DNA from: Psilocybe cubensis
Lineage: Eukaryota
Direction of reading: 5' to 3'
DNA: 64,000 nt
NCBI GenBank assembly: GCA_017499595.2
Contig: CM039009.1
Span: 1,240,001-1,304,000, forward strand
Of the stretch, positions 7,755 to 27,696 are shown in pieces; within the stretch, counting starts at the first letter, position 1, and every line of letters starts with the position of its first letter. The translations under genes and the position numbers were made by a program. The notes below the pieces were generated by a model, which did no database searches, had not been told where the DNA came from, and was given only the letters and a program-made list of their open reading frames with translations.

Positions 7755-8395
7755 TACGAGAAAAAATAGGTTTGAATGCTGATACTGATAGAGCGACGTC
7801 TGATATGTGTGGGTCCACCTTCTGGGTTGGGGGATTGTGTATTTTGCAAGGACTTTTGAATGGCCCCAATACGACTCCAAGTCCTATTTTGGAGCCCGCT
7901 CGGAAACGAAACGGAATCCAGCGAACCGGAGGAGGCGGCGCCATTCTCGACAGATTTTTGCACACTGCATACTTTGGAGAGCCGTATAATCTAAGATAAG
8001 GTCACGGACGCTGCGAAAGATGGAAAGACGTGAGATTGGCTTTCCGTTGTTTCCGTTTACGACCTATGAACATCGTGCCTTTGACAGTTGCGGCATTCAG
8101 ACGGGATGATCTATCCTGATGGTTAGGGTTACAGTGAGTAAGCTATTGCTTCCGAACTGACTTAGCCGCTCAACTACACCAGTAACCACCATGACCATCC
8201 TCGTAGCGCTTACCATTGACAAGACACGCTTCCAATATCACTCCGAAGAGAAATGAGACAACAAAGACGACGGAACTAACAGGAACGCAGCAAGAAAGTC
8301 AAAAGGGTATTGTCATTAACCGCCTACAGGAGGACGCTTTACTAAAGAATAATCGACACTATCCATAACACGCAACCACACAAGAACCCAGTAAT

Positions 8396-8873
8396 CTAGA
8401 GGTTGACAGGAGTGCATCCAAGGTTGATGAGACCATCTACGAGAACGCGAAAGATCAGTAAAAAGAACAAGGAACACCCCAACAGTGACTTACTGTAGTG
8501 GTTGCTGGTGCAGCAGACGGGTTGCGTAGAGCTGAGACGACCAAGGTCAGCATTTTTTAGAGAAAGTATGTGATGGAACTGACCAAACGTTGCCACCAGC
8601 GGCGATGACACTAAGGGGAGAGCAGTTGATGCCGACCTGTCCAGTAATAGCACCGGCAACGACGTTAACAAGGCTGCCCAAGAAGTTGGCTTCCGAGGTG
8701 CCAGCAGCGTAGGAGGTGTTGCCTATGAAAGAGTTCATGAAGAGAACACAAAAAAAGGATTGTGAAGACATACAGCATTGAACATCGCCAGTGTTGCAGG
8801 AGGCGTTGATGTCACCAGCAGCGACGAAGACAGCCATGGAGGCAGCAGCGAAGATAGCGAACTTGGAGAACAT
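8396..8873 (-). CDS. Class I hydrophobin (4 exons)
   Basis: Signal peptide MFSKFAIFAAASMAVFVAA. Spliced product has 8 Cys spaced C-X6-CC-X32-C-X12-C-X5-CC-X12-C and ends GLINLGCTPVNL*. Three GT-AG introns. Confidence 0.95.
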
Positions 8874-9148: not shown

Positions 9149-9825
9149 TTTTAGTTTATAACTACGTAATGGGCGCGTTGTTGTCAAGTTGCAGAGTTGT
9201 ACGTGATTGTACGCGTCCATCACCGACACCGACAGCGCCAATAAGCCAATTCGGGCCCGCTACGTGAGCAATATGCGCGCAACGCCGCCTCTTATTTCTC
9301 TACTAGCCGCGTTCTACATTTTGTAAGCTTCTTTCTGTATTCCCACTCCTTCAATAGTTTTTGACCTTAAATTGCAGTATATAGGTCTTTGCTTGTTGAG
9401 CTATGGTTACCGAATCTTTGGAACTGTCCTGAATAAACGCCTAAACACTAACGTTACACCCCCTGGCCCGCGTTCGATTAACGGTATACTCCGCAAGGTG
9501 CCTTCTCAACAAAAATGGCTAATGAACGATAAAATCCAAGTATAGCTCTAAATACCAAAAATATTCAAATAGACCAAATTGCGCGACTTCCGACAAAAGT
9601 GAATGGGACACCGGGCCACCAAAAGACATACCGACAACGAAATGGCAGACGACGAAACCTCCCTGCCCAACGTGAAAGACCGAGAGAAGAGTATTATGAT
9701 TAATCGCCTAATAAACGATATCCCAAATCCGAATTATCCACTACTACGCGACAAACACCATCTCAATCACAAATCATGACCAGCTACTACGCTCATCAAA
9801 AGTCCACCGAATCAGATTAACCAAC

Positions 9826-10329
9826 TTAGAGGTTGGCGTTGACGGGGTTGCAGCCAACGTTGACGAGACCGTCTAAAAGAAGAACATTCAGAAACTAATA
9901 AAATTGGGAAGGCAATGAAGCTTACTGAAGTGGTTGCTGGTGCAGCAGACGGGCTGGGTAGAGCTGAAAAATTGCAGAATAAAATAAGATTGCGGGGCAA
10001 TGCAGATGGAGGAAAAAGTTAAACTGACCAGGAGTTGCCAGCAATGGCGAGAACGCTGACGGGGGTGCAGTTGACACCGACCTGGCCGGTGATAGCACCA
10101 GCGACAACGCCGACGAGGCTAGCGAGGAGGTTAGCCTCCTTGGTGCCAGCAGCGTAGGAAGTGTTGCCTGCGAACAACAAAAACATGATCAGCTAACGAC
10201 TCAAAATGAAAGAGCCGAAGGAAACATACAGCATTGGACAGCGCCGGTGTTGCAAGAGTCGTTGATGTCGCCAGCAGCGACGAGGACGGCCATGGAGGCG
10301 GTGAAGAGGACAGCGATCTTGGCGAACAT
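9826..10329 (-). CDS. Class I hydrophobin, tandem paralog (4 exons)
   Basis: MFAKIAVLFTASMAVLVAAGDINDSCNTGAVQCC|NTSYAAGTKEANLLASLVGVVAGAITGQVGVNCTPVSVLAIAGNSC|STQPVCCTSNHF|NGLVNVGCNPVNANL*. Same intron positions as the 8396..8873 gene. Confidence 0.95.
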
Positions 10330-10394
10330 TTTGATAGTGATTAAGGAGATGGGGGTAAGAGGGTAAGTGGTTGCTTTTTTGGGTTTTTAAGTAG

Positions 10395-12104: not shown

Positions 12105-12718
12105 CCCGACTACCTTCTATTTCGAACCCGACTTGAGTCGACTTCGTCGATCAGGTCGACCCGACTATAATCTATTTCTAGTCCGACTAAGCCGCCCAAG
12201 TCGACTTGGTCGTGTCGGTCGACGACTATGTTCTAGCCCGACTATATTCGACTTCGAATCCGACTTGGTCAATCAGGTCGTGTTTAGTCGACCCGACTAT
12301 GTTTTATTTCGAGCCCGACTAAGTCGAGTTAGTCGTGTCGGTCGACGACTATGTTGTATTTTTGGTCCGACTATGTCGACATAGTCGTGCAGGTCGACCC
12401 GACTTTGTTCTATTTCTAGTCTGAGTTAGTCGCCCAAGTCGACTTAGTCGTGTCGGTCGACCAATTATATTCTATTTCGTGCCCGACTAAGCCGCCCAAG
12501 TCGACTTGGTCGTGCAGGTCGACCGACTATGTTCTATTTCGAGTCCGACTTGGTCAATCAGGTCGTGTTTAGTCGACGACTATGTTTTATTTCGAGTCCG
12601 ACAATGTCGATCAGGTCGACCGACTATATTCTATTTCGAGCCCGACTAAGCCTCCCAAGTCGACTTAGTCGTAATTCGGTCGACCGACTATGTTCTATTT
12701 CTAGTCCAACTTGGTCAA
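12105..12718. repeat. Degenerate palindrome-rich minisatellite, ~12 units mostly 44-64 bp
   Basis: Core GACTATGTTCTATTTCGAGYCCGAC recurs at about 12108, 12163, 12224 (short), 12240, 12295, 12347, 12401, 12463, 12525, 12578, 12622 and 12686. The linkers are rich in GTCGAC. Confidence 0.9.
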
Positions 12719-14142
12719 TAATTGTGTTCAAACTTCAGGTACTTCACGCGCACTCCTTGCAACCTTTAGTACTTACCATCAAGTCCATATATTTATTTGA
12801 CTCTGACTCCGACTCATAGTATTAGAATAGAATTAGTAAATAGTCGAAGGAAGCAAGCCTGAGTGTATTTGTTTATTTTATTTTTAGTTTATTTGGACTT
12901 GGGTTGGACAGGACTTGCTTAGGCGCCCGTGGGCCGTGGGCCGTGGCCGTGTCACTGAACTGTACATGTGCAGGCAGCAGTGGATCATGATCAGGCGCCT
13001 GTCCGATTGCCTGATTCACCTGCGCCGCGCCGCGCTGCGTTGCGTGATGGGTGACCCCACCAACCGATTAACGGACGTCGGACGAACCGACCGAGGAGAT
13101 AACTCAAGTTCGAACCTACTTACTTACTTACAAGTAGGTGTAGTTGTAGGAGTATCGATGTCGCTATCGGAGATTTAGAATAAAATAATGGTATACTAAA
13201 ATAATTTAGATGTAGATATTTAGATGAGGGATGTATCATATGGACGAGGGATGAGGGATGAGGGATGTGGGAGGTGGGAGGTGATGTTCGATCTGAGCGG
13301 AGCGCTGAGCGCTGAGCACTGAGCGTTGAGTACGAGTCCTTGTGTGTTCCGGAGCGATGAGCGAGGGTGATGTGATACGTCGAATGCGAATGCGAATGTT
13401 AATGCGAATGAGGATGCGAATGAGGATGCGAAGGTGAGGTGGATGCGTGTGTGAATGTGAATGCGTACGCGACGCAGGCGCAGGCGAAGGCGCTGCTGAT
13501 TAGATTCGGATTCGATCTGGATTTTTATGTTATGTTATTTCAGTGCGCATTGGCGGATGTTAGAGCATTCGAACATTCGGGATGTGTGTGGAATATAAAT
13601 GAGGGAAGAGCGTGGAGGGTAGGCGCAGAGCGGAGGTAGAGGCGGAGGTTGGAAGGAATGTCGAAGGAATATGAAGGAATATAGGCGGAATATAGCAGAT
13701 GGATGAGAAGATGACAGAATCAGAATCAGAATCAGAATAGAATAAATAGAAATAGAAGTGGGATGGGGTAGGATGAGACGCGCACCTGTCGAGACTCGAA
13801 GAAGCAAGGGTACATAGTTGTCATTTCCGGGTATGGGTATAAATAGCGCTGAGCGCTCGCGCTCAGCACTCAGTCGTTGATTTTGATTTTGAGTCTCCTT
13901 TTCATCCTCTCCACCTTTCCTTTCCTTTCTTCCTCACCAGGATCCAGCTCTCGCGCCCTTCGCGTCTTTAGCTTTATTAGTTATATCATACACAACGCGT
14001 GTTGTCGGCGCATGTCCGTCTACGTCTTTGTGCTGAACCCGCTTCGATAACCAATATCCAATATTCGATGTTCGACATTGAATGCGCGTCTTGACGTTCG
14101 CTCAGGCTCCTCCTCGCCACCTCGCCGTCTTCCCCCCTTCTC

Positions 14143-14642
14143 TCAATCTTTATCCTTGCTCCTATCCTTTTCCTTCCCCGCCATATCATTTCCCTCATCC
14201 TCATCCTTAACCTGAGCCTCATCACCCTCCTTAACCCGAGCCTCATCACCCCTCCCACCCGCACCCTCCCTCTTCACCCGCCCAAACGGCCCAAACGCGC
14301 ACCCGAGCCGCGCATCGAGACAGTGCACGTTGATAGCGTTCGCGACGAACCAGTAGATGAGCGGGTGGTCGGTTGCTATTTTGTCGAGGTTGGTGGGGGG
14401 TTGGGAGGAGGGAGAGGAGGAAGAGGGGAGGGGTGATGATGTTGGTGTTTGTGTTTGTGATGACGGTGGTACAGATGAATGTGGAGGTGGGAGAGATGTC
14501 GGTGTGGGGGTTGATGATGATGATGACGGAGACGGGGACACGGAGGATGAAGATGAGGAGGAGGAAAAAGAAGAAAGAGTGGATAACATTGTGGAAAAAA
14601 GAGATGGTCCCCCGTTGGATAGCATACTGTCGAGATAGTCTG
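14143..14642 (-). CDS. Possible 3' exon of an unknown gene (Ser/Pro-rich, then a non-repetitive segment, then a charged tail)
   Basis: CTGAC...AACAG acceptor just upstream. Non-repetitive segment LDKIATDHPLIYWFVANAINVHCLDARLGCAFGPFG. Upstream exons could not be reconstructed. Confidence 0.3.
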
Positions 14643-15502
14643 TTCAGTCAGTTGAATTGAAGGCGGTGAAGAAGGGTATAAGTGTAATCGTCCACTGTAA
14701 ATGGTATGGGTGTCGGTGTCGATGTAGGTAGGGTAGGGTACGGTCGTACAACAAAATCCAAAAGTAAGTACAAATACAAGTGCAACAAGCTTTTTCCTTA
14801 TCACCTCTATTCGCTACTCAACCATATCCCGCGATCTCCCATCTCCCAACATAACACCGATATACATATTGAATCATCCAGAAAGGTGAACGTTGAAAAT
14901 TTTTTTTTTCATTATTTGGAATTCGGTCAAATCTTATCGCACCGCCGCACGGCTAAGCGCGCGTTCTGTGCCGGTGCCGCGCACTGGGCGGAGCGTCGGA
15001 CGGGCCTCGGAGGATTGGGCGTGGAATCCGGATCAGAGGGTACTAGTAAACAGATGTACATACAGGCTGATCAGTGCTAACGCAATCTTATCAGTATCTT
15101 TCGCTGGAGTGTCACGGTTGTTCAAGTTCCAGTCTCTCTCTTGCTTGCGCTATACGACATACGACAGTGTGTACTATCTATCTATCATATCACCTTGCTT
15201 GTTCGTTATCCGTTATCCTGAAAGATCTGAAAGATCTTTCGTTGTCATCGTCCGTTCCATTCGAGTTTTGAATCGATTTGGGCTGTTTGCGAGGTCTTGC
15301 ATACGCTGCGGTTGGTCTAGTCTCATTTCAACGAACTTTATTTAGGTGGATACGAGGTTCAAGGACACTCTATTCTATCTTATCCTCTTGCTTTGCTTTT
15401 GCTTTTACCTCGACATCGACCTCGAGAACGTCGATCCCAGCACCTCATACAATTCAAATTCGAATACGATCTGCTGCTCTGCACAACGTAACGTAACTTA
15501 CA

Positions 15503-18500
15503 ATGGACCCTTCTTCCAGCACCAGCACCACTACAAGCACGAGCGCGAATACAGGCGCAGGGACAGACAAACTCCTCGTTGAACAACACGTCGCGTATAT
15601 CCAGAAACTCGGCGAGGTGCGTTAGCGGTGCTCGTGTCGTCCACTTGCGTCTCGCGTCTCGTTCTCGGTATCATTCTCGTTGCTGACTCCCTCTCCTCCT
15701 CCACTTCTATTCAAATTCCGTTTGTGTTTGGTATCGCAACCATCACCACCTTTCCGTTCCCGTTCCCCTCTTCCTCTTCGTCTTTCTCATCCTCATCCTC
15801 CTCATCCTGCACCCACGAAACCTCTCTCTCTCTCTCCCCTCCCCCCTCTCTCTCACACACAGAACAAAGACGACCTCACATACCACCTCACCGCGCACCT
15901 CCGCCTCAACGCCGTCTACTGGGGCTTCACGGCCCTCTCGATCCTCGGCCGCCCCGACGCGCTCGACCGCGAGGAGATGATTGGGTTTGTGATGAATTGT
16001 TGGGATGAGGAGGCTGGTGAGTTTTTTTTGAGTTTTTGGGTTTTTTAGGGGTTTTGGGTTTTTGGGGGGTTGGGATTTCGGATTTGAGAGCTTGGATTGG
16101 AGAGTTTGGATAGATGATGGTGGATGGAGCATGGGATGATCAATAACCTTCTAATTTCCCCTTCCCTTCCCTTCCCTTCCTTTCTTTTCCACTTTCATTT
16201 TTCATTTTTCTTTTCAACCCGCTTTCTAATCCAACTACTAACTAACTCACCCACCCACCCACACACTCACTCACTCGCACCCTCACTCATATGCACACAG
16301 GCGCATTCGGCGCCCACCCAGGCCACGACGCGCACCTCCTATCCACACTCAGCGCGATTCAGATTTTGGTGATGCAGGATGCGATGGAGAGGGTTGATGT
16401 AGAGCGGGTTGTTAATTGTGCGTATGATTTTTTTTGGGTGTGGCTTTTTTTGGTTTGCGTTTTGGCTTATCTTATGTCATGTCATCTCAAATCTCACTTT
16501 GGCTCGCGCTCGATAATCGACCTCACACAAAACCAAAAAAAAAAAAAACTGCAACACCTAACCCACCCAATATATATAAAAAAAGTCATACTCTCCCTAC
16601 AACACCCATCCGGCACATTCACAGGCGACCGATTTGGCGAGCAGGACACGCGGTTTTTGTATTGTGCGGTTAATGCGTTGTCGCTGCTTGGGAGGCTTGA
16701 TGCGTTGGATGAGGGTGTGCTTGGCGAGGGTGTGTTGGGTGAGGAGGGTGTGGTGGATGAGGAGGGTGTGGTGGATGGAGAGGAAGAGGAAAAGGGGAAG
16801 GGCAGGGGGGAGGGGAGGGAAAAGGGGAGAGAGAAGGGCAAGGGCAAGGAGAAGGTAGTGGAGTATTTGCAAAGGTGTAGGAATTATGATGGTGGGTTTG
16901 GAAGGAAAGTTGGTGCGGAGAGTCATTCGGCGCAAGGTGAGATTTAGTTTTTGTTTTTTTGTTTTTTCTTGGTTTTCTTGTTTTTTTTATTTTGACGTTG
17001 ACTTTAAACTGATCTTTCTCCTCTTTCTACTCTTTCACTCCTTTTTTTGTGTATGTGTACATGTGTGCGTGCGAACAGTATTCGTATGCGTAGCGGCCCT
17101 CGCGATCCTCGACAGACTTGACGTAGTAGACGTTGACACGCTCGCGTTTTGGTTGGCGGAGAGGCAGCTTCCTAATGGGGGGTTGAATGGGAGGCCTGAG
17201 AAGTTGGAGGATGTGAGTTTTTTTGTTTTTTTTTTTCTCTTCTTCTTCTTCTTCTTCTTCTTCTGCTTTTTTTTGTGGTTTTGGTTGGGTTGGGGTTTTT
17301 TGGGTTTTTTTGGGGGGTTGGGGCGCACGCGAGCGCGCGCGAGTTCGTTCGTTCGTTCGCGTTCGTGTCGATGAACTGCACACTGCACAACTACTTCTTC
17401 ATTTTAACCTTCTTTTTATCATTATTATTATTAACATTGCACCCAAAAAAACACTATACTAACACCTCCCCCCTCCTCTTCCTACCCCCTCCTCCTCTTA
17501 CCCCCTCATCTCTCATCTTACCCCTCTCATAAAAATCTTACCGTCTCTCTCTCTCAAAACCAATAACCACGCTAACCACGCTAACAATAATAAAAACGCT
17601 AACAATAATAATAAAAACCAGGTATGCTACAGCTTCTGGGTCCTCTCCGCGCTCTCGATCCTTAACAAGCTTTCGTGGATCGATGAGGACAAGTTGACGG
17701 GGTTTATTTTGTCTGCGCAGGTGAGTTTGTGGATGTTTGTGTGTGTGTGTGTGTGTGGATGTGGGCGTGGATGGGGATGGGGAAGATGCAAGTGCGGAAA
17801 TGCTGATGATTATGGCTTTTTCTCTTTTTTTTTTTTTTGATTGGATCTTTCGTTTTCTTGAATACGATTGCGATTACGACTGTGACTTCGACTTCGACTC
17901 GACTTCGACTATGACTACGACTACGACCTACGAACACAACTATAAACACGAATACGAAAACGGTTATGGACGCGGTCATTCGGTGTCTTTCGCTCATCTT
18001 CTCGTCTTAACTTTTTCTTGTTCTTGTTACCTTTTTTACGGTAACTGCGATCGGCGCCGTTTGTTGCACACGCACACGCACCCCGCACACGCACGCTTGC
18101 ACACGAACGCACAACACGCGCTCCCGCAAATACTCGCACGCGATCATACTCACGCACACGAACGCTCGCTCACGCGATCGTACGCGCTCAGAACGCAGAA
18201 AGCGGCGGAATCGCGGATAGGCCAGGGGATATGGTCGATGTGTTTCATACCCATTTCGGGATTGCTGGTGAGTTTTTTTTTTTTTTGCGCGCGTTTTCGC
18301 TTCGTTTTTGGTTTTGTTTTTGTTTTGTGTTTTGGTTTTTGGGTTTTGGTTTTTGGGGGTTTGGGGTTTGGGTTTTGGGTTTTCGGGGTTTGGATGGACT
18401 GTGCTGGACTGGGACTTTTTTGTGCGCGGGTGCGGCTACGGCTGTGCGATGCCGATGCGTGCAAGATGCGTGCAAGATGCGAAGATGCGCGGATGAGCAT

Positions 18501-18841
18501 GAATGTGTGGTCTTTGTGCTGTGTTTGTGGTTTTTGTGGTTTTTGTGGAACTGAAACTGACTCGAATCGCCTTTTACCTCTTTGTCCCTTTCGTTTCCGT
18601 TTCCGTTTCCGTTTCCGTTTTCGTGGCTGTATATCACGCTAATCACTTTCCACCCCCACCCGCAACCCCCTTCCATCCCCCCCCCAACAAAACAAAACAA
18701 CATCAAACCCAAAAAGGTCTATCGATATTGGGATACCCGGGCCTTGTGGACCTCGACCCTGTGTATTGTATGCCTGCGCATGTTATTGAGCGGCGTGGGT
18801 TGAGGAAGGGGTGGAAGGCGCTTGAGAGGCGGGTTGGTTGA
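15503..18841 (+). CDS. BET2: Rab geranylgeranyltransferase (GGTase II) beta subunit, 8 exons
   Basis: Exons 15503-15616, 15863-16016, 16301-16417, 16586-16936, 17079-17212, 17622-17720, 18192-18267, 18717-18841 splice in frame. Motifs [79 protein letters not shown]. Confidence 0.95.
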
Positions 18842-20016
18842 GATGGGTTGCTTGGTTGAGAAGCGGGTTGGTTGAGAGGCGGGGTGTGTGTGTGGAGTTG
18901 AGTGAGTCATGTTTTGTGTGGATGGAGTCATGTTTTGGGGGTGTAGAGCGGGCATGGATGAGGCGGAGATCAGGAGATTATGAGGCGGGCGGGAATGAGG
19001 CGCGCATGAGGCATGAGGCAAGGCGGTGAGGCGGTGAGGCGCGTTAGGAAGGCTGAGGAGACGATATGGGGATCCCGCATCCGCAGCGTGTATTGTGTAT
19101 GTTTACATTGTCATTGTTGTTGTGCTGTGTGGAAGTGAGACGCGAGATAAAGGGGTTTAACGTTTGGGATTAGGGGCTAGTTAGGAGACAATGGCGAATG
19201 ACATGACAATGATAATGATATTAATAATGACACGCCACCGTGGTATCGTGGCCGGCCCCGTGATCGCGTCGAGCCGCGAGCGGCGCGGTGAGGCCGGGAG
19301 GTTGGGAGGCTCCGGCAGTGTTTGGGACTCTGGAGGCCGAGGGGTTAATATTGGTATTAGTATTAGTAATCAATGATAAATTATGCAATGGCCTTGTTAT
19401 GGTATGTGAAGGCCCGAAACGGCAACGGCCACGGATCCGGATATGGGCGGATCCGGGATGAGTCAGTTTTGAGTGGCAGTGGCCAGTGGGCGTGGCCAGT
19501 TAGTGGCCTAGTGTGCGATGGCGATGGCGATGGCCATGCGGCGCCGAGTCATGTTGTATATGACATATGTGTCCCCATTGTCTCTCGGCGTTTCTTGCAA
19601 TTCGCGAGGGGGGCGGGGAAAAAGGGGGGGGTTTGTGGTTTGGAGTTGTTCCCACGGTGATTTGTAACGGCCACGGGGACTGACTGACGAGCGAGCACGG
19701 GTACGGGTTGACGGTAACGTTACAACCCTTACGACCACTTGCTTCTTACTACTATACCAGTGTTATCTGGTTTGTTGCTCTTGTCTTTATCTTTATCTTT
19801 GTCTTTATCCTAGTCCTGGATACTTGTGTTCTACCAAGACCGGTGACCTGTGACTGGTGGCCAGTGGGATTTGGGTTCATTGTCCTGTCCTGTGGGTTTT
19901 GTCAGCTGGGATAAAGACTCGGAGCAGGAGCAGCGGGGACGATTACGTTACGGGTTGTGTTTGCGGACGAGAGGATTCCGACTCGATTCGACACGACTTG
20001 ATTCGACTCGAATTCG

Positions 20017-23000
20017 ATGGCGACGGGGTATGGTCGTGGTTATAGTTATTGTGCGGGTGCAGGCGGGGGAGGGAGAGCGAGTGCCGGTGCCACTCCGGGC
20101 GGAAATGGAGGCAGAGCCACTGGACAATCGAATGTGAATGCGGATGTGAATGGCGATGATGGCACGAATGGGACAATAGATCTACAGGGGGGCCGTTATG
20201 AGTCTGACTATAAGAGGCCCGCTGTTGCGCTTTTGTCGGGTTCCCTTTCTCCTTCTCCGTTTGCTTTTGGTTTTGCGCCTTGCTCTGATACTACGACTAC
20301 GACTACGACTACGACTTCTACACCAACGACTACAGCGAATATTGCTGCTACACCGATGATACCGACGCAGAAGACAGCTTCGTCATTGTGCCCCGATATG
20401 GATATGGATACGGGTATGGGCATGGATATGGATATAGATACGATTCCCGCCTTGTCCGCTTCCGCTTCTGCATCCAGTTCTAAATCCACAGTACCTTCCA
20501 CATCCACATCCACATCTACGTCCTCGCCATCATCATCCTCTTCCTCATCATCATCATCTACAACAACTCCCTCTTCATCCATATCCACCTCCTCACCATC
20601 ATCATCAACAACGACAACACTACCACAAACATCCACATCCACGACAACAACGACAACAACATCAACATCCCGCTTCCCAACATGGCGCACCCTCGGTAAA
20701 TTCGCAGCAGCAGCAGCAGCTATGACCCTCCCACTCCCCGCGCTCGGCGAGCGCTTCCGCTCAAAGTCGGAGCCTGCCCAGGTCCATCCTCATCCCCATC
20801 CCCATCCCCATCCTCATAATCATCCGTTGTCTTCGCCGCCGCCGATGGTGAGCGAGGACGTGGAGATGGGAGATGCGCGTGCGCGTGTGCGGGACGAGGT
20901 TGGGGGTGGGTTTAGGAGGGCGAGTAGTGAGAGTGCGGCGGCGGCGCGTGCGCGTGGTGCGCGTGTAAGTGGGGGGAGAAGGAGGTTTGATGTGAGTCTT
21001 TTGCTTTGCTTTGCTTTGATTTCTTTTCGTCTGTGCTTTGCTCTTTGCTCGCTTTGATTTTTTGTTTCGTGCTCGCTTTGATTTTTCTGTTCTTTGCTCG
21101 CTTGTTTTTTACTTTTTTTCATTTCATTTTTTTTTTTTGCTCCCCCCGCTCGAAGCATACCGACGCTTTTCATGCCATCCTTTTCCTTCTTGATTACACC
21201 GCCGTTGTTCACCCTTCACCGTTCAACGTCCAACGTCCAATTGCTGTCATCCTTTTTGTTGGCTCTGCGATGGTATTTTTGGATTTGGATTTGGATTTTG
21301 GGATATGACTAATTTCCATTTTTTTCACTCTGTTCTTCTTCCTATTTTCTATTCCTATTCTTGTTCCTGTTATTATTATGCCTATTATTGAATCGTATGC
21401 CTATCACCGATGGTTCGATCCATTCGCTATGTCGCTTGACATCATCCATCATTTATCATCGCGCTTCTGTTGTCCCTCATCGCGTGTCGCTCGTTGATCC
21501 CGCGTTGATTTCTTTTTGTTGTTGTTGTTGGTGGTGGTTTTTGATTTTTTTTTCTTGTTTCTTCATTGTTCTTATTCTTGGTTTTGTTGTTATGGTTTTG
21601 TTTGGCTTTACTCTGATTTGATTGCCTCACTTCTATTACTTCTTCACTCCAACGCTTAACTTTAATTTTACTTGTTCACTCCCAACTCCCAACTCCAACT
21701 CTTTCACTTGTGCTTTGATACTGACTCCACCCTTTGTCTCTACAGGACCCAATGCCTAGCGTAACAGAGTCCACAGAATCACCAGCAACAGAATCAACAG
21801 AGTCCACAGATAGCGAAGACGAGGCGTGTGCGGTCGAAGCGCAGATTTTCGGGCCTGTTTCTCCTATCAAGTCCAAGGCCAAGGCCAAGTCCGAATCCAA
21901 GGCCAACGTCAAGTCCAAGGCCAACGCAAACGCAAACGCAAATGCGAATGTGAATGCGAACCGCAAAAGCAAAAGCAAAAGCAAAAATGACATCGGCGGG
22001 AATGGCCAGGCACGCGAAGAGGAGGATACCGATACCGATACAGACACGGACACCGACACCGAGAACGAGGAGCAGGAGGAGCAGGAGGAGCAGGAGGAGG
22101 ATTGGGCGGCGCACTATGATTATCCGCAGTCGCAGCTTCCGCGGTTCCCTGATGAGATTGAGAAGATTGAGAATCAGGGTGTGTCGGTGGTGGTGGTTGA
22201 GCAGGCGTCCGAACAAGAACAGCAGCAGCAACGACATGCGTCGTCATCGCCATCGCAATCGCAATCACAACCACAACCTCAAACGCAAACGCAAACCCAA
22301 ACGCAAACCCAATCCCACCACCAACCACAACCCCAACAACAACTAACCCGCACCATCTCAAACGCATCCACCGAAGTATTCGACACGCCCCCCGAAGATG
22401 TGATGCGCAACCTTGTACGGCGCGGCATCCGGATTCGGGATTTTGCGTATGTGCGTGGGTCGAGGGCGCATTTTCATGCGGGGTTTGATGGGGAGGGGGT
22501 GGGGGTTGGAGAATCGAGTGAGGAAGGGGGTAGGGATGTGGGAAGGGATGTGGGAAGGGATGGGAGTAGGGAGAAGGAGAGGGAAAGGGAGAAGGAGAGG
22601 GAAAGGGAGAAGGAGAAGGAGAGAGCGGAAGAGCGTATAAGGCGGATGAATACGCAGCCTGCGGCTGAGATATTCGATCCTATCAAGGCGCTCTCCGAGT
22701 GCGATTATAGATGGTGGGTCGTCCCTGCCCCTGCCCCTGCGCCGTCGTCCACATCAACATCAACATCAACGTATTCGGCGGCGCAAGCACCAGCACAACC
22801 ACAAACGCAAGGACAACCGCAAGGACAACTAGCACCAGCACCACAGGCGCCGAGACAACGCAAGTACGCAGTACCAGGTAAAACGCTCCGACGCCTTTTG
22901 GATATAGGGTGGCTGTCGCATGAGGAGCTCCGCGCGAGAGGGGACGAGAAGGATTGGGAGAGTTTGAGGGTTTATGATGAGCGTGTGAGGGCGTCTTTGG

Positions 23001-24594
23001 GGGTGTATGCCTCGGCTTGTATGTCTTCTGCTGGTGGTGGTGGTTCTGGTGCTGGTTCTGTGGGCAAAACAGGAAAAGCATCGGTATATGAAGGTGGAGC
23101 AGCTGCGCAGATGCAGACGCAGACGTGGGGTGGAGGCGCGTACCCTTGGAGACCGATGAAAGTGCGCGAGCGGCTTGCGGAGGGGTTGGCTGCGGGTGTA
23201 GGGACGGGTGCGGGTGCGGGGACGGGGACGGGTGCGGGGGGTGTTGTGCAGAACGGTGTGCAAGCGATCAGCGCGATGATCAGTTCCGCGCTCGGCTCTT
23301 CTTCTTCTTCTTCTTCTACCTCCTCCTCAACACCATCATCCTCGTCGTCAACATCAACTCCTTCGTCATCGTCGTCGTCAACGACAACGACAACACCATA
23401 CACCCCCTGCGGCCCACCACCTACACCCGCACAGCGCCTCGCAGCGCTCAAAGCTCTCTACCCGTTCTGGAGGTATATGGACTCGACGAGGGAGAAGCAG
23501 GAGAACTTTGAGAGGTGGGAGAGGGAGAATGAGGAGAGGGTTAGAGCTGTTATTTTGGAGCGGGAGCGGGTGGGGGTGGGGGAGAGGGTGGGGGTTTGGG
23601 CTGGTGCGGTTAGTAGGAATGAGAATGCGGGTGTGGGTGCGAATGGACAGGGACAGGGACAGGGTGCGAATGGAGTGAGGAGGGGGAGCAGTAAGCGCCG
23701 ACTGGATGAGCGCGAGGAAGCCGGCGATGCTCAGAGTCAGGTCGTGGAGCAGAAGCAGGAACAAAAGCAAGCGCAGAGCGAGCGGAGCCCGAAGCGTATG
23801 CGGATGACGCCTGAGCGCGAGATGCGGTCGTCGCAGTCGCAACCGTATAGACAACAATCCTTCTCACAACCCTCCTCTTCCTCTTACTCGTCGTCGTCAG
23901 CAGCGGCGGCGCAGCCACATGCGTATTACCCGCTGTTCTCCTCACAGCCCACGCCCACCTCCTCCTCCTCCTCCTCCTCCTCGTCTCATCCAACGCACCA
24001 GTACCAACAATCCCAACCCGCGTACCCACACTCGCACTCACACTCACACTCACACTCACACTCGCATCAGTACCAGTATCCATATTCATACCCATACGCG
24101 CCGCCGCTGAAACAGTACCCAGCCCCACTGCGCTCGTACGATCCGCAGGTGTACCCGGACGCGGCGAGCGTGATAAGCGGGAGCGGGCAGCCGCGCGCGA
24201 ATGATGCGTTGCCTTTGTCGCAGGAGAGTGCTTCTGGTAGAGGTCGAGGACAGGGGCAGGGAGGGGGAAGGGGCAAGAGGTTGGGGAGGGTTGATACGCC
24301 GCCTTTTGATGGCGATGGCGATGGCGATGGCGAGGGTCAAGGTCAGGGTCAAGAAGGAGGAGAAGGAGGAGAGGAGGGCGATGGAGTGTTTGGGTCGCAG
24401 TCGCAGGGCAGTCCAGGGCGAAAGCAGGGAGGCACGAGGCTTGTTCATCCCAAGGAGAGAAAGGCGATGCAGCGCGCGTTGAGTCGGACGCAGACGTATA
24501 CCCAGCTGTGAGTCTTGTTTTTTTTTTTTTGTTTCTTTGTGGGATGGGATGGGATGGGATGCTGATGTTCTTTTTTGGTTGTAGGATTGTATGA
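20017..24594 (+). CDS. Large (~1250 aa) low-complexity protein of unknown function
   Basis: Exon 20017-20991, intron 20992-21745 (GTGAGT...CTACAG), exon from 21746 in the frame of the 925-aa ORF. It ends either at TGA 24509-24511 or via intron 24508-24584 to LIV* at 24594. Islands of normal complexity: LVRRGIRIRDFAY, VPGKTLRRLLDIGWLS, YDPQVYPDAA. Confidence 0.65.
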
Positions 24595-25089
24595 GGATCA
24601 GGATGATGACTTGGATATATTATCGCATAACGCCTGAATATTGAATGCCGGAATGTAATACGGAAAGACGAGCGAGCGAGCAGGCAGGCAGGCGGCCAGT
24701 AGAAACAACAACAACGACGACGACGGCAAAAAACGCACACGCACACGCAATGCGGAACCTTTCTATTTTATTTTCTTCTATTTTTCTACTTTTTCTAAAG
24801 TTGGGACATTCAATGAGAATGCGAATGAGAACGTGAACGTGAACGAGAACGAGAATGGTAGAAGAAATGGTAGAAGAAATGGTAGAAGAAATAGGAAATA
24901 GCAAGGTTTGCGTGTATACGAAGCGTTAGCGGGACACTTTTTTTCTCTCTTTTTTTCTTTTTTTTTTTCTTTTTCTTTTTAATTGTTCATTCACGTTAAT
25001 CATTTTTATTCTCCGTGGATTCTTGGTTTTTTTAATTACTTTATTCAATTCAAGTTTGATTCAAGTTCCCATTTTTTTCCATTTTCCAT

Positions 25090-25214
25090 TTTTCACTTTT
25101 GCACTTTTCACTTTTCACTTTTCACTTTTCACTTTTCACTTTTCACTTTTCACTTTTCACTTTTCACTTTTCACTTTTCACTTTTCACTTTTCACTTTTC
25201 ACTTTTCACTTTCA
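25090..25214. repeat. (TTTTCAC)n heptamer microsatellite, ~15 perfect copies
   Basis: Direct reading of 25102-25212. Confidence 0.97.
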
Positions 25215-26334
25215 TCATCATTATCCCTCAGGCCCTCATCGACATCGATCATCATCAGCAGATTTTTCATCGCATTATGAATCATGATTCACATCGCATT
25301 TTCTCATCTCGATTCGATTCGACTCGATGATTTATCGTATTTCCTCCCCCTCCTCCCCGTCCATTCCCCTTCATTTTCTTCATCCCCATCCCACTTCATC
25401 CCCTTCATCCACTTCATCCCCTTCATCCACTTCATCCCCATCCCCACCTTTATCCCATCCCCATCCCCATCCCCATTTTTTTTCTTTCTTGAAACAATTG
25501 AATATCGAGTCACTTACTATCCCGCGGATCTCCCATTTCTGAATTTTCTTTTTTCTTTTTTCTTGAATGTACCGTCGTAATCCCTCTGTGTTCTGTGTAC
25601 ATTGTGTTTACATTGTGTTTACAGCATTGTGTATATGAGCATGAAATTGAATTGAATAATGTAATGTATAGAATTGAGTTGAGTCGAGTTGCACGTAACG
25701 GTGTACAATGGTACATGTACATGGATTTTTTGTTACCTCTGCATGTAAGTAAGTTAAAATGTCCGGCTCCGGCTTCAGCTCCATTGACTGCTACATGGTA
25801 TGATGGTAATTACAAGGATAAAGCATAAAGGACCAAGGACGGACGTCGGAGGGTTTATTGGAAGTATAAGTGACAGAAAGTATAGGTGTTTTACTATTGG
25901 AACAGTGGAAAAGTGGGATAGATAGATAGTTTGTAAACTTGTATTTTCTATAGTCTTAGCCTTAGCCTACTCTCATTACAAATTTTCAAAGTGGATTTCA
26001 AAGATTTTACAGGAGTCCAGGACTATACAGTACAGTATGGGATCAAAGCAGAGAAATGATGGATGATTCAATGAATAGTACTACAGTTACCAGTACTTGT
26101 TCATAACACCATTTACAAGTACAAGTACAACGTGTAGTGAGAAAGTGAATTATTTAAATCGAAAGCAAAGCAAAAAAAGCAAAAGCAAAGCAAAGCAAGA
26201 TAGTCAAGTCATAGCGCCAAATCCAATGCATATCATGTTATATCATGTTCATGTTCTGTCATCTCATGTCATATCACATCTAGATCCCACCCTTCCCTTC
26301 CCTTCCCTAGCACACCATCCATTCTACAAATACT

Positions 26335-27696
26335 ACCTCCATTTCTTCCTCGCTTTCTTCTGCGCCTCGGTCATCCACAGCGGCGACTGCCTCCGTGATG
26401 ACGGTGAGGGTGACGATACGGATGCAGATGCAGATGCTCGCGCCATGTACACCCGCGTTGCACGCAGTGTGCGCTTTACTTTACTTTGCCGTCTCATTAT
26501 CGGCGGGCCTGGATGAGTGAGTGAGGTGTGAGTGAGGGGGTGGGAGTGTGGTTGATGATTGATGAGTGAAATGTGGTAGTCGGTTAGCTAGTCATAGAAA
26601 TAGGAAGCTTACAGTATGATGATCCTCACCGTAGAGCGACTCAAGCTCAGAATCCGAATTATCCGAGCCATCGTCATCGTCATCCGAGTCATCGTTGTCC
26701 GAGTCGTCCGAGTCATCGTCGTCCCAGCCGTTATCATTCGAATCATCGTCAGAAGACGTGCCTTCAGCTTCAGATTCTTCAGATTCTCTCGCGGACTCGG
26801 AAGTGTCAATGTCCATGAGCGGAAGCGGAAGAGAGCCGCGAAACGGAGCTGGAACTGTGTCGGCAGCTGTGTTGTCCGAGTCAGGGTCCGGGTCAGAGAG
26901 AAGGTAGTACATGTCGTCGTGGATGTAAAGAGCGAACATCGCGTTTGCGACCGCGTCTTCGTCTTCGTCTTTATCTTCGGCCTTGTCCTTGTCCTTGTCC
27001 TCATGTTTATTTTTATCTTTATTCTTGTCTTTATCTTTATCTTTATCTTTATCTATAAATTCAAAGTTCAAAGTTCAAAGTTCAAAGTTGCCCTCAACAT
27101 CGAGGAATCAAATAATAAAATAGGACACACCTATTCGCTTGTTCGCATTCACCTTGGGCGCCTTGGGTGCAGTTGAAGCCCTGGGTATTTCGACTCGGAC
27201 CTCGACGTTCTCCTCCGTCATAATACCTATATATGTCGCATCGCCGAGGTCAAGTTCGTCTACATCCCCTTCAACCACCGGCTTATCGTCTGCTGAGAGA
27301 TGAGGTTTGAGGAGCGGGTACTTTTAGGGGGAGAATGTGGATATGAGGTGCGCACCGGGGGATGCTTGGAGGTGCGGGGTGTTATCAATGTCAATGTCAA
27401 GTTCGTTCAAGAATTTCAAGTATTCGTCCTCTGGATTTGTTACAGTGATTGTGCAATGCGGATAACATACCATATCATACCCATACCCGTACCATAATAG
27501 CATAACATCCACCGAGACAATTGAAATCCAAAAAAAGAAGTACAAAAGAATACACTTCCATCAGTTCCGTTGTACAAGTGATAACCAAACTCCTGCCTTT
27601 TGAGCTGCGACACACACCTAACTCTGGCTCTGGCTCGTACTCGGATTCGTAGTCGCTGCCAGTGCCAATCGAGTCGTCGAGATCGAACAGTGACAT
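26335..27696 (-). CDS. Putative multi-exon acidic low-complexity protein, unknown function
   Basis: MSLFDLDDSIG... start. Candidate exons EDEYLKFLNELD..., DDKPVVEGDVDELDLGDATYIG..., DKDKDK...ESLYGEDHHT are separated by GT-AG introns. The 3' end is ambiguous. Confidence 0.4.

Follow-up and report, generated by a model that had tools for sequence, protein, structure and literature searches.

At human meiotic break hotspots the indel rate is raised and the flanks carry C>N and A>N changes on the forward strand, with single-stranded DNA left of the break there; resection extends over 1–2 kb, and the asymmetry is strongest 700–800 bp away and missing from the central 100 bp (PMC7615360). Many fungi have genes that are C-rich at the start and G-rich at the end, also at fourfold sites and with an effect on amino acids, as one modest gradient per gene throughout the genome and with a flat AT skew (PMC3315797). 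In yeasts, the base profile of nucleosomal DNA is palindromic and asymmetric, shapes codon and amino-acid use and is seen genome-wide on averaging over a fixed unit of ~150 bp (PMC4422121), while zebrafish AC/GT bridging introns carry complementary simple sequence at their opposite ends, with >75% of the positions paired in the exemplar (PMC4691745). Here we describe a strand-alternating base skew in and around BET2, the gene for the Rab geranylgeranyltransferase beta subunit (positions 15503–18841, plus strand), in a 64,000-nucleotide stretch of Psilocybe cubensis contig CM039009.1 (positions 1,240,001–1,304,000; assembly GCA_017499595.2), which we call the window and to which all plain coordinates refer.

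The oscillation has features in common with each of these systems. It shares the mirror asymmetry, the loss of C and A on the single strand and the raised indel rate with the human hotspots, but instead of a statistical excess of rare mutations over 1–2 kb it is a near-saturated base composition with ~200-nt flips, many per island, in essential coding sequence. Where the fungal gene skew is a single C-to-G gradient with a flat AT skew, here the skew is strong, recurs per exon or conserved core with up to 15 flips in one gene, flips in A/T as well and is confined to islands. The palindromic base profile around a centre is shared with yeast nucleosomes, but the blocks vary in length, are visible in a single gene and are island-restricted. 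Unlike the zebrafish repeats, the skew is not confined to intron boundaries but runs through exons and intronless DNA. As it resembles break-centred asymmetric mutation and the fungal gene skew but lacks a defining feature of each, it is not counted as a member of either class. No description of such islands, or of near-saturated mirror skew at the ~200-nt scale, was found in the literature on skew, breaks, nucleosomes and basidiomycete hotspots, most subscription papers being outside this coverage.

Skew oscillation within BET2

The BET2 gene consists of eight exons with an open 389-codon frame and seven GT..AG introns of 246, 284, 168, 142, 409, 471 and 449 nt, exactly the lengths given in an earlier sequence-only reading of the window. 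The product contains the prenyltransferase domain PF00432 and its closest homologues are from Agaricales. Introns 2 and 3 are skipped at GT..AG and intron 1 is jumped in one contig of run X10, which we guess to be RNA, a guess supported by its joints; introns 4–7 are based on the open frame and homology. Introns 3 and 7 have AAG acceptors, and intron 3 is in frame and stop-free, such that its retention would preserve the reading frame. An assembly artefact was rejected because independent runs carry the same type of sequence and the spliced exons.

The strand-alternating skew in this gene is real and far beyond chance. With Met and Trp codons excluded, 102 of 170 third positions in the first halves of exons 2–8 are C or A, compared with 28 of 169 in the second halves (p = 8e-17); omitting the insertion in exon 4, the counts are 101/153 and 20/141 (p = 2e-20). 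A two-state model places five of the seven C-to-G flips in exons and all six G-to-C flips in introns. The sequence-only reading had proposed that the oscillation is phased with exon structure, and this phasing holds. A score based on exon and intron halves equals 9.16 at the true position, whereas 1,085 shifted placements within the island have a mean of −0.09, a standard deviation (SD) of 2.11 and a maximum of 7.80, which argues against switch points that fall at random relative to the exon boundaries.

Exon 1 (15503–15616) is C/A-rich along its whole length and does not flip, and intron 1 (15617–15862) is C/T-rich without a G-rich start. The C-to-G flip of exon 2 (15863–16016) is placed near 15969 by a hidden Markov model, with C/A counts of 22/24 and 9/23 in the two halves, and intron 2 (16017–16300) flips back near 16141. 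Exon 3 (16301–16417) has a sharp flip near 16352 (17/19 versus 1/18), followed by a G-to-C flip near 16483 in intron 3 (16418–16585). Exon 4 (16586–16936) is G-rich from its flip near 16631 to its end and contains a G-rich, low-complexity insertion of ~41 codons at approximately 16715–16846, where Tandem Repeats Finder (TRF) reports 15- and 18-nt units. Because the switch sits at this early position and the G-rich insertion comes after it, the halves of exon 4 do not differ significantly (19/58 versus 13/59, p = 0.22). Intron 4 (16937–17078) shows a weak G-to-C change near 17000. Exon 5 (17079–17212) flips near 17146 (17/22 versus 0/22), intron 5 (17213–17621) flips back near 17374, and exon 6 (17622–17720) flips near 17669 (11/15 versus 2/16). 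An additional cycle is present in intron 6 (17721–18191), with flips near 17885, 17962 and 18067. Exon 7 (18192–18267) has a weak C-to-G flip (8/12 versus 3/12, p = 0.10), intron 7 (18268–18716) a G-to-C flip near 18549, and exon 8 (18717–18841) starts mixed and has only G or T at the third positions of its second half (8/20 versus 0/19). The C/A starts and G/T ends ascribed earlier to exons 2–6 and 8 are borne out overall, with exon 4 flipping early and not significant by halves, and exon 7 trending likewise. The converse course ascribed to most introns is also found, except for the missing G-rich start of intron 1, the weak C-rich end of intron 4 and the extra cycle of intron 6.

It had also been suggested that complementary intron halves pair and bring the splice sites of inflated introns together. 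Introns 2 and 5 indeed fold below global shuffles (z −4.2 and −3.9) and below local 40-nt shuffles (z −2.6 and −2.3), and over 51 introns the end-to-end skew drop grows with intron length (rho 0.56). The other five of the seven introns fold no better than their shuffles (30 each), however, none of five exon-spanning folds falls below shuffles, and several inflated introns consist of C/A or of G/T throughout. Cycles are also seen where no intron interrupts the frame and at fourfold sites distant from splice sites, which pairing leaves unexplained. It is thus highly improbable that the skew arose through selection for complementary ends by which inflated introns are shortened, as in the zebrafish case, and pairing does not serve as a general explanation; it is at most a side effect and may help individual introns.

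Phase rule and comparison with orthologs

The phasing extends to other genes in islands of the same type. Seven further island genes (PCNA, WBS methyltransferase, TRAPP, S13, Miro EF-associated, HECT and BCS1) were annotated by hand, all with open frames and GT..AG introns and with an approximate end for BCS1; ten of 12 tested exons match Pfam. All eight exons that lie between two introns of at least 130 nt flip from C/A to G/T (129/170 versus 34/170, p = 9e-26), while among 29 exons with a short neighbouring intron 17 flip this way and nine the opposite way. In the seven genes C-to-G flips are 24 exonic and nine intronic, and G-to-C flips 11 exonic and 17 intronic (p = 0.011); several of the exonic G-to-C flips fall within low-complexity insertions, as judged from sequence. 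At G-to-C flips ~10% of the DNA is short repeats, as against 1% where C-to-G flips lie. The rule is that C-to-G flips lie in constrained cores and G-to-C flips in expanded stretches, that is, long introns and protein loops.

Exons are not the cause of the oscillation, and the skew is neither BET2-specific nor tied to splicing, because the same cycles run through uninterrupted coding sequence and within a single intron. A neighbouring 928-codon frame (21725–24511, plus strand), unspliced as judged from its open frame with partial RNA cover, has four C/A-to-G/T cycles at fourfold sites, and the 2.8-kb intron of PCNA contains four complete cycles with four C-to-G flips. Neither word search nor exact look-up returned homologues of the 928-codon frame; a full scan gave 28 weak matches. 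Blocks shared with these homologues make up 19% of the frame and contain three of its four C-to-G flips, and one such block is at a G-to-C transition.

The PCNA gene (L125:1416–6019; G000:C12, about 74–79 kb) contains an intron of 2,815 nt and encodes 404 aa, with a long acidic/basic stretch inserted into the C-terminal domain; a 75-nt intron splits this insertion at a G-to-C flip. A long insertion also occurs in PCNA of the mushroom Coprinopsis, so the one seen here may be ancestral. The HECT ubiquitin ligase gene (L139:720–7800; G000:C11) has an intron of 1,654 nt that is mostly G/T, and its coding sequence holds many low-complexity insertions.

The orthologs of BET2 that were compared do not show the oscillation. 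The difference between exon halves is absent in three basidiomycete-like transcripts that are 71–78% identical (p 0.28–0.64), and among 15 ortholog transcripts or intronless genes a single one gives p = 0.049, matching chance expectation. In the genomic ortholog L051 all seven introns are at matching positions and measure 50–60 nt, and there is no flip (55/125 versus 64/125). The codon pattern is missing in this short-intron ortholog, in keeping with the claimed phasing. These introns are also an indirect check on the ~50–60 nt that the sequence-only reading gave for introns elsewhere in the window. The exon-4 insertion is lacking in 16 of 16 aligned orthologs, one of which has an unrelated insertion of ~20 aa in the same loop; none of the orthologs among the best 120 of 167 and the best 120 of 274 matches exceeds 362 aa or carries the insertion. 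Third-position GC is 65% in BET2 and 46–55% in the three orthologs. Of the lineage-specific substitutions left of a flip, five of six are towards C/A codons, and of the ten right of a flip most, although not all, are towards G/T. The oscillating state of BET2 is derived, and the skew pressure extends to amino acids, as seen in the substitutions towards C/A codons and the exon-4 insertion.

Skew islands in the genome

BET2 is part of a skew-oscillating island rich in tandem repeats that spans approximately 13100–26600; a segmentation blind to polarity places it at ~13.2–26.6 kb. The skew SD is 0.41–0.48 at 12–28 kb compared with 0.13–0.28 in the rest of the window, short repeats cover 4.8% of the island versus 0.2%, and TRF returns 81 rows for 11.5–28.5 kb. 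The window has a mid-contig position in a genome of 46.6 Mb in 21 contigs. None of 31 evenly spaced 10-kb samples of this genome is island-like, and none has a skew SD of 0.30 or a repeat cover above 1.1%. Targeted fetching of 40 pieces, of which 16 were lengthened to 28 kb, allowed 16 further islands of 2–15 kb on ten contigs to be delimited, which with that of BET2 gives 17. As the pieces were picked by repeat-like motifs, this number is a lower bound and the repeat content is partly selected; narrow repeat patterns recovered few islands. Short-repeat cover is 3.4% over 19 island stretches (background 0.2%), and GC is 0.52 in islands versus 0.45. Next to 105 putative short introns in background DNA, from a motif scan restricted by design to 45–70 nt, the skew amounts to −0.01 upstream of donors and −0.03 downstream of acceptors. 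BET2 is in one of a set of discrete domains of 5–15 kb in which a strand-mirroring local process has run close to saturation.

Several other features were seen in the window and in other pieces of the genome. Just left of the BET2 island edge, 12130–12720 is a degenerate tandem array of 22–62-nt units rich in GTCGAC, and near the right edge a 7-nt unit (TTTTCAC type) is repeated 19 times almost perfectly at 25075–25212. The minus strand has two short genes (8390–8870 and 9790–10340) that are similar to each other, encode cysteines, contain small introns and resemble tandem hydrophobins. Pieces L031, L032 and L033 (G000:C3:846–876 kb) have three near-identical skew tracks ~10.7 kb apart, either a tandem island triplication or an assembly repeat, and L136 and L137 (1.28 and 0.81 Mb on G000:C10) have near-identical tracks on one contig, a duplicated island. 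A candidate intron-containing tRNA gene lies at L125:7070–7185, just past the right edge of the island in that piece. The telomere repeat at the start of G000:C12 (L003:1–170) is the 7-mer CCCTAAA, while the usual fungal repeat is a 6-mer.

Origin of the skew

The two strands of the islands are near mirror images and the force acting on them is strand-symmetric. At fourfold sites of the eight island genes the G-blocks have G.54, T.22, C.14 and A.11 (n = 1141) and the C-blocks C.52, A.18, G.22 and T.08 (n = 971). A/T tracks the blocks although these were called on G/C alone (p = 1e-18), and twofold sites agree, with T at.69 versus.20 and G at.79 versus.32 in G-blocks and C-blocks, respectively. 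Introns are T-rich in both types of block. The top strand is depleted of C and A to the left of each G-to-C flip, and the bottom strand to the right. The evidence points to an unusually strong local mutation process, and not an aid to splicing, behind the skew.

We regard it as an even bet that recurrent breaks in unconstrained stretches, together with strand-specific damage and repair slippage, explain the islands. The G-to-C flips would mark where double-strand breaks, most likely meiotic, recur in DNA that is rich in repeats and probably poor in nucleosomes. Resection would expose the 3' strand on either side, and C and A would be lost from it through damage and error-prone fill-in. With the G-to-C flips taken as centres, the strand that 5'-to-3' resection would leave single is the one depleted of C and A, and the loss from the top strand left of the centre is mirrored on the right, a sign that agrees with the human break flanks. 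Slippage in repair synthesis would lengthen whatever selection lets grow, and GC-biased conversion would lift silent GC. Introns that host break zones would consequently inflate, and an exon between two of them would be C/A-rich on the left and G/T-rich on the right; the exon phasing would be a by-product of where purifying selection tolerates break zones. Yeast break hotspots have about twice the frequency of long microsatellites (PMC2267716), and a (CNN)n motif marks crossover regions in Schizophyllum (PMC4209137). Indel and repeat turnover and GC are both raised in the islands. Silent GC is 0.68–0.74 in island genes and 0.48 in 13 frames outside the island, a control that consists of fast-evolving genes and is not matched for gene class with housekeeping genes.

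Besides this limit of the GC control, several findings weigh against recurrent breaks as the source. The skew does not have the kilobase extent of resection tracts: the median block lengths of 192 and 232 nt are five to ten times shorter than human resection. A predicted island-wide left-G/right-C polarity was not found in 28-kb tiles (nine of 15 closed islands, p = 0.6); here islands were defined blind to polarity, one open island and one below 3 kb were left out, and the idea had arisen by eye on 8-kb pieces. Given the short scale and the absence of island-wide polarity, breaks can account for the islands only with short tracts. Clustering of islands at chromosome ends is not clear: by a count made by eye, ~11 of 55 donor-plus-T-run matches are within 250 kb of a chromosome end against ~14% expected, which is unconvincing. 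GC and CpG peak at the C-to-G flips and not at the G-to-C flips, and G-blocks on the sense strand are longer than C-blocks (313 versus 175 nt, p = 0.008), from which it follows that a component linked to the direction of transcription exists.

The position of the GC and CpG maxima bears on nucleosomes. The skews in A/T and G/C, together with GC and CpG, have their centre at the C-to-G flip and have faded at ~200 nt, the geometry expected if nucleosomes were strongly positioned on GC-rich coding cores with long repeat-rich linkers between them and mutation or repair were palindromically biased around the dyad, and the base profiles of yeast nucleosomal DNA reach codons in a similar way (PMC4422121). 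Exon-centred nucleosomes had been put forward in the sequence-only reading; their geometry is retained, but the block lengths are broad (60–480 nt from the 10th to the 90th percentile), and no autocorrelation peak at 160–180 or 320–360 nt is seen in 14 island pieces and the island of the window. The background introns without adjacent skew run counter to a genome-wide signature of nucleosome length, and the sharp island limits and the repeat expansion stay unexplained, so that we consider nucleosomes unlikely to be the source.

The longer sense-strand G-blocks would suit inflated introns and loops that act as cryptic two-way promoters or pause sites, a small-scale copy of the C-rich-start, G-rich-end pattern known at gene level in many fungi (PMC3315797). 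Against this, the AT skew is flat in that pattern and flips with the GC skew here, deamination of the non-template strand should give the opposite sign downstream of a promoter, and the island limits are not accounted for. Transcription is on this basis very unlikely to be the driver. If the chemistry invoked for the breaks acted at a promoter or replication origin located at the G-to-C flip, the opposite sign would be expected. Replication is two-fold symmetric around origins, and the saturation with repeats suggests poor mismatch repair, as would suit a domain that combines weak mismatch repair with dense initiation or Okazaki-fragment junctions. However, the direction of forks or the phase of junctions would need to switch every ~200 nt and yet remain constant over evolutionary time, which makes such an asymmetry extremely improbable.

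Strain contigs differ from the window by ~1–5% plus many indels, a figure without a control region beside it, and no published diversity figures for P. cubensis were found in the literature. In a single case, one strain contig carries a diverged haplotype at 22283–23289 and is identical to the window from 23404, which puts its breakpoint across the G-to-C flip near 23286. All four allele combinations of sites 17128 and 18236 are present among the window and three runs, a result that recurrent mutation could likewise yield. Both observations are hints towards recombination. Five of the listed strain differences in exon 3 are at 16350–16384, and in exons overall 12 of the 14 listed differences are within 50 nt of a flip (p = 0.02), in a filtered table that gives 40 of 308 differences and includes mis-laid repeats. 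Such clustering is as expected if flip positions still drift.

The clustering and the GC maximum at C-to-G flips would also fit recombination anchored on conserved cores, in which heteroduplex formation and conversion occur only where homologues match and outward strand-directed repair or synthesis produces the mirror skew. Crossovers in Schizophyllum favour conserved exons in 51 of 71 regions (PMC4209137). Damage to single strands flanking a break within the core should produce the opposite sign, though, and in the other genes nine of 33 C-to-G flips are intronic; this alternative is distinctly unlikely.

Going beyond recurrent breaks as such, the islands may be long-lived, self-reinforcing recombination hot domains. 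Short-range break repair would have rewritten essential genes to saturation, with breaks and repeats promoting each other, introns and loops swelling, and the break map readable from one genome at ~50-nt resolution. We hold this to be possible but doubtful. If true, it would constitute an undescribed route of intron inflation and a case of mutation or conversion bias overriding codon and amino-acid constraint in core genes.

The present analysis contributes the phase rule across eight genes, ortholog and background controls, a folding test and one failed prediction. If breaks are the source, the pattern would provide a candidate explanation, open to testing, for the C-rich starts and G-rich ends of fungal genes, so far unexplained, and caution would be needed in codon-usage, selection and dating studies on island genes. 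A local mutational force would then set silent codons, change conserved residues and lengthen the introns of housekeeping genes up to fifty-fold, and sequence alone would mark where this mushroom breaks and repairs its DNA.

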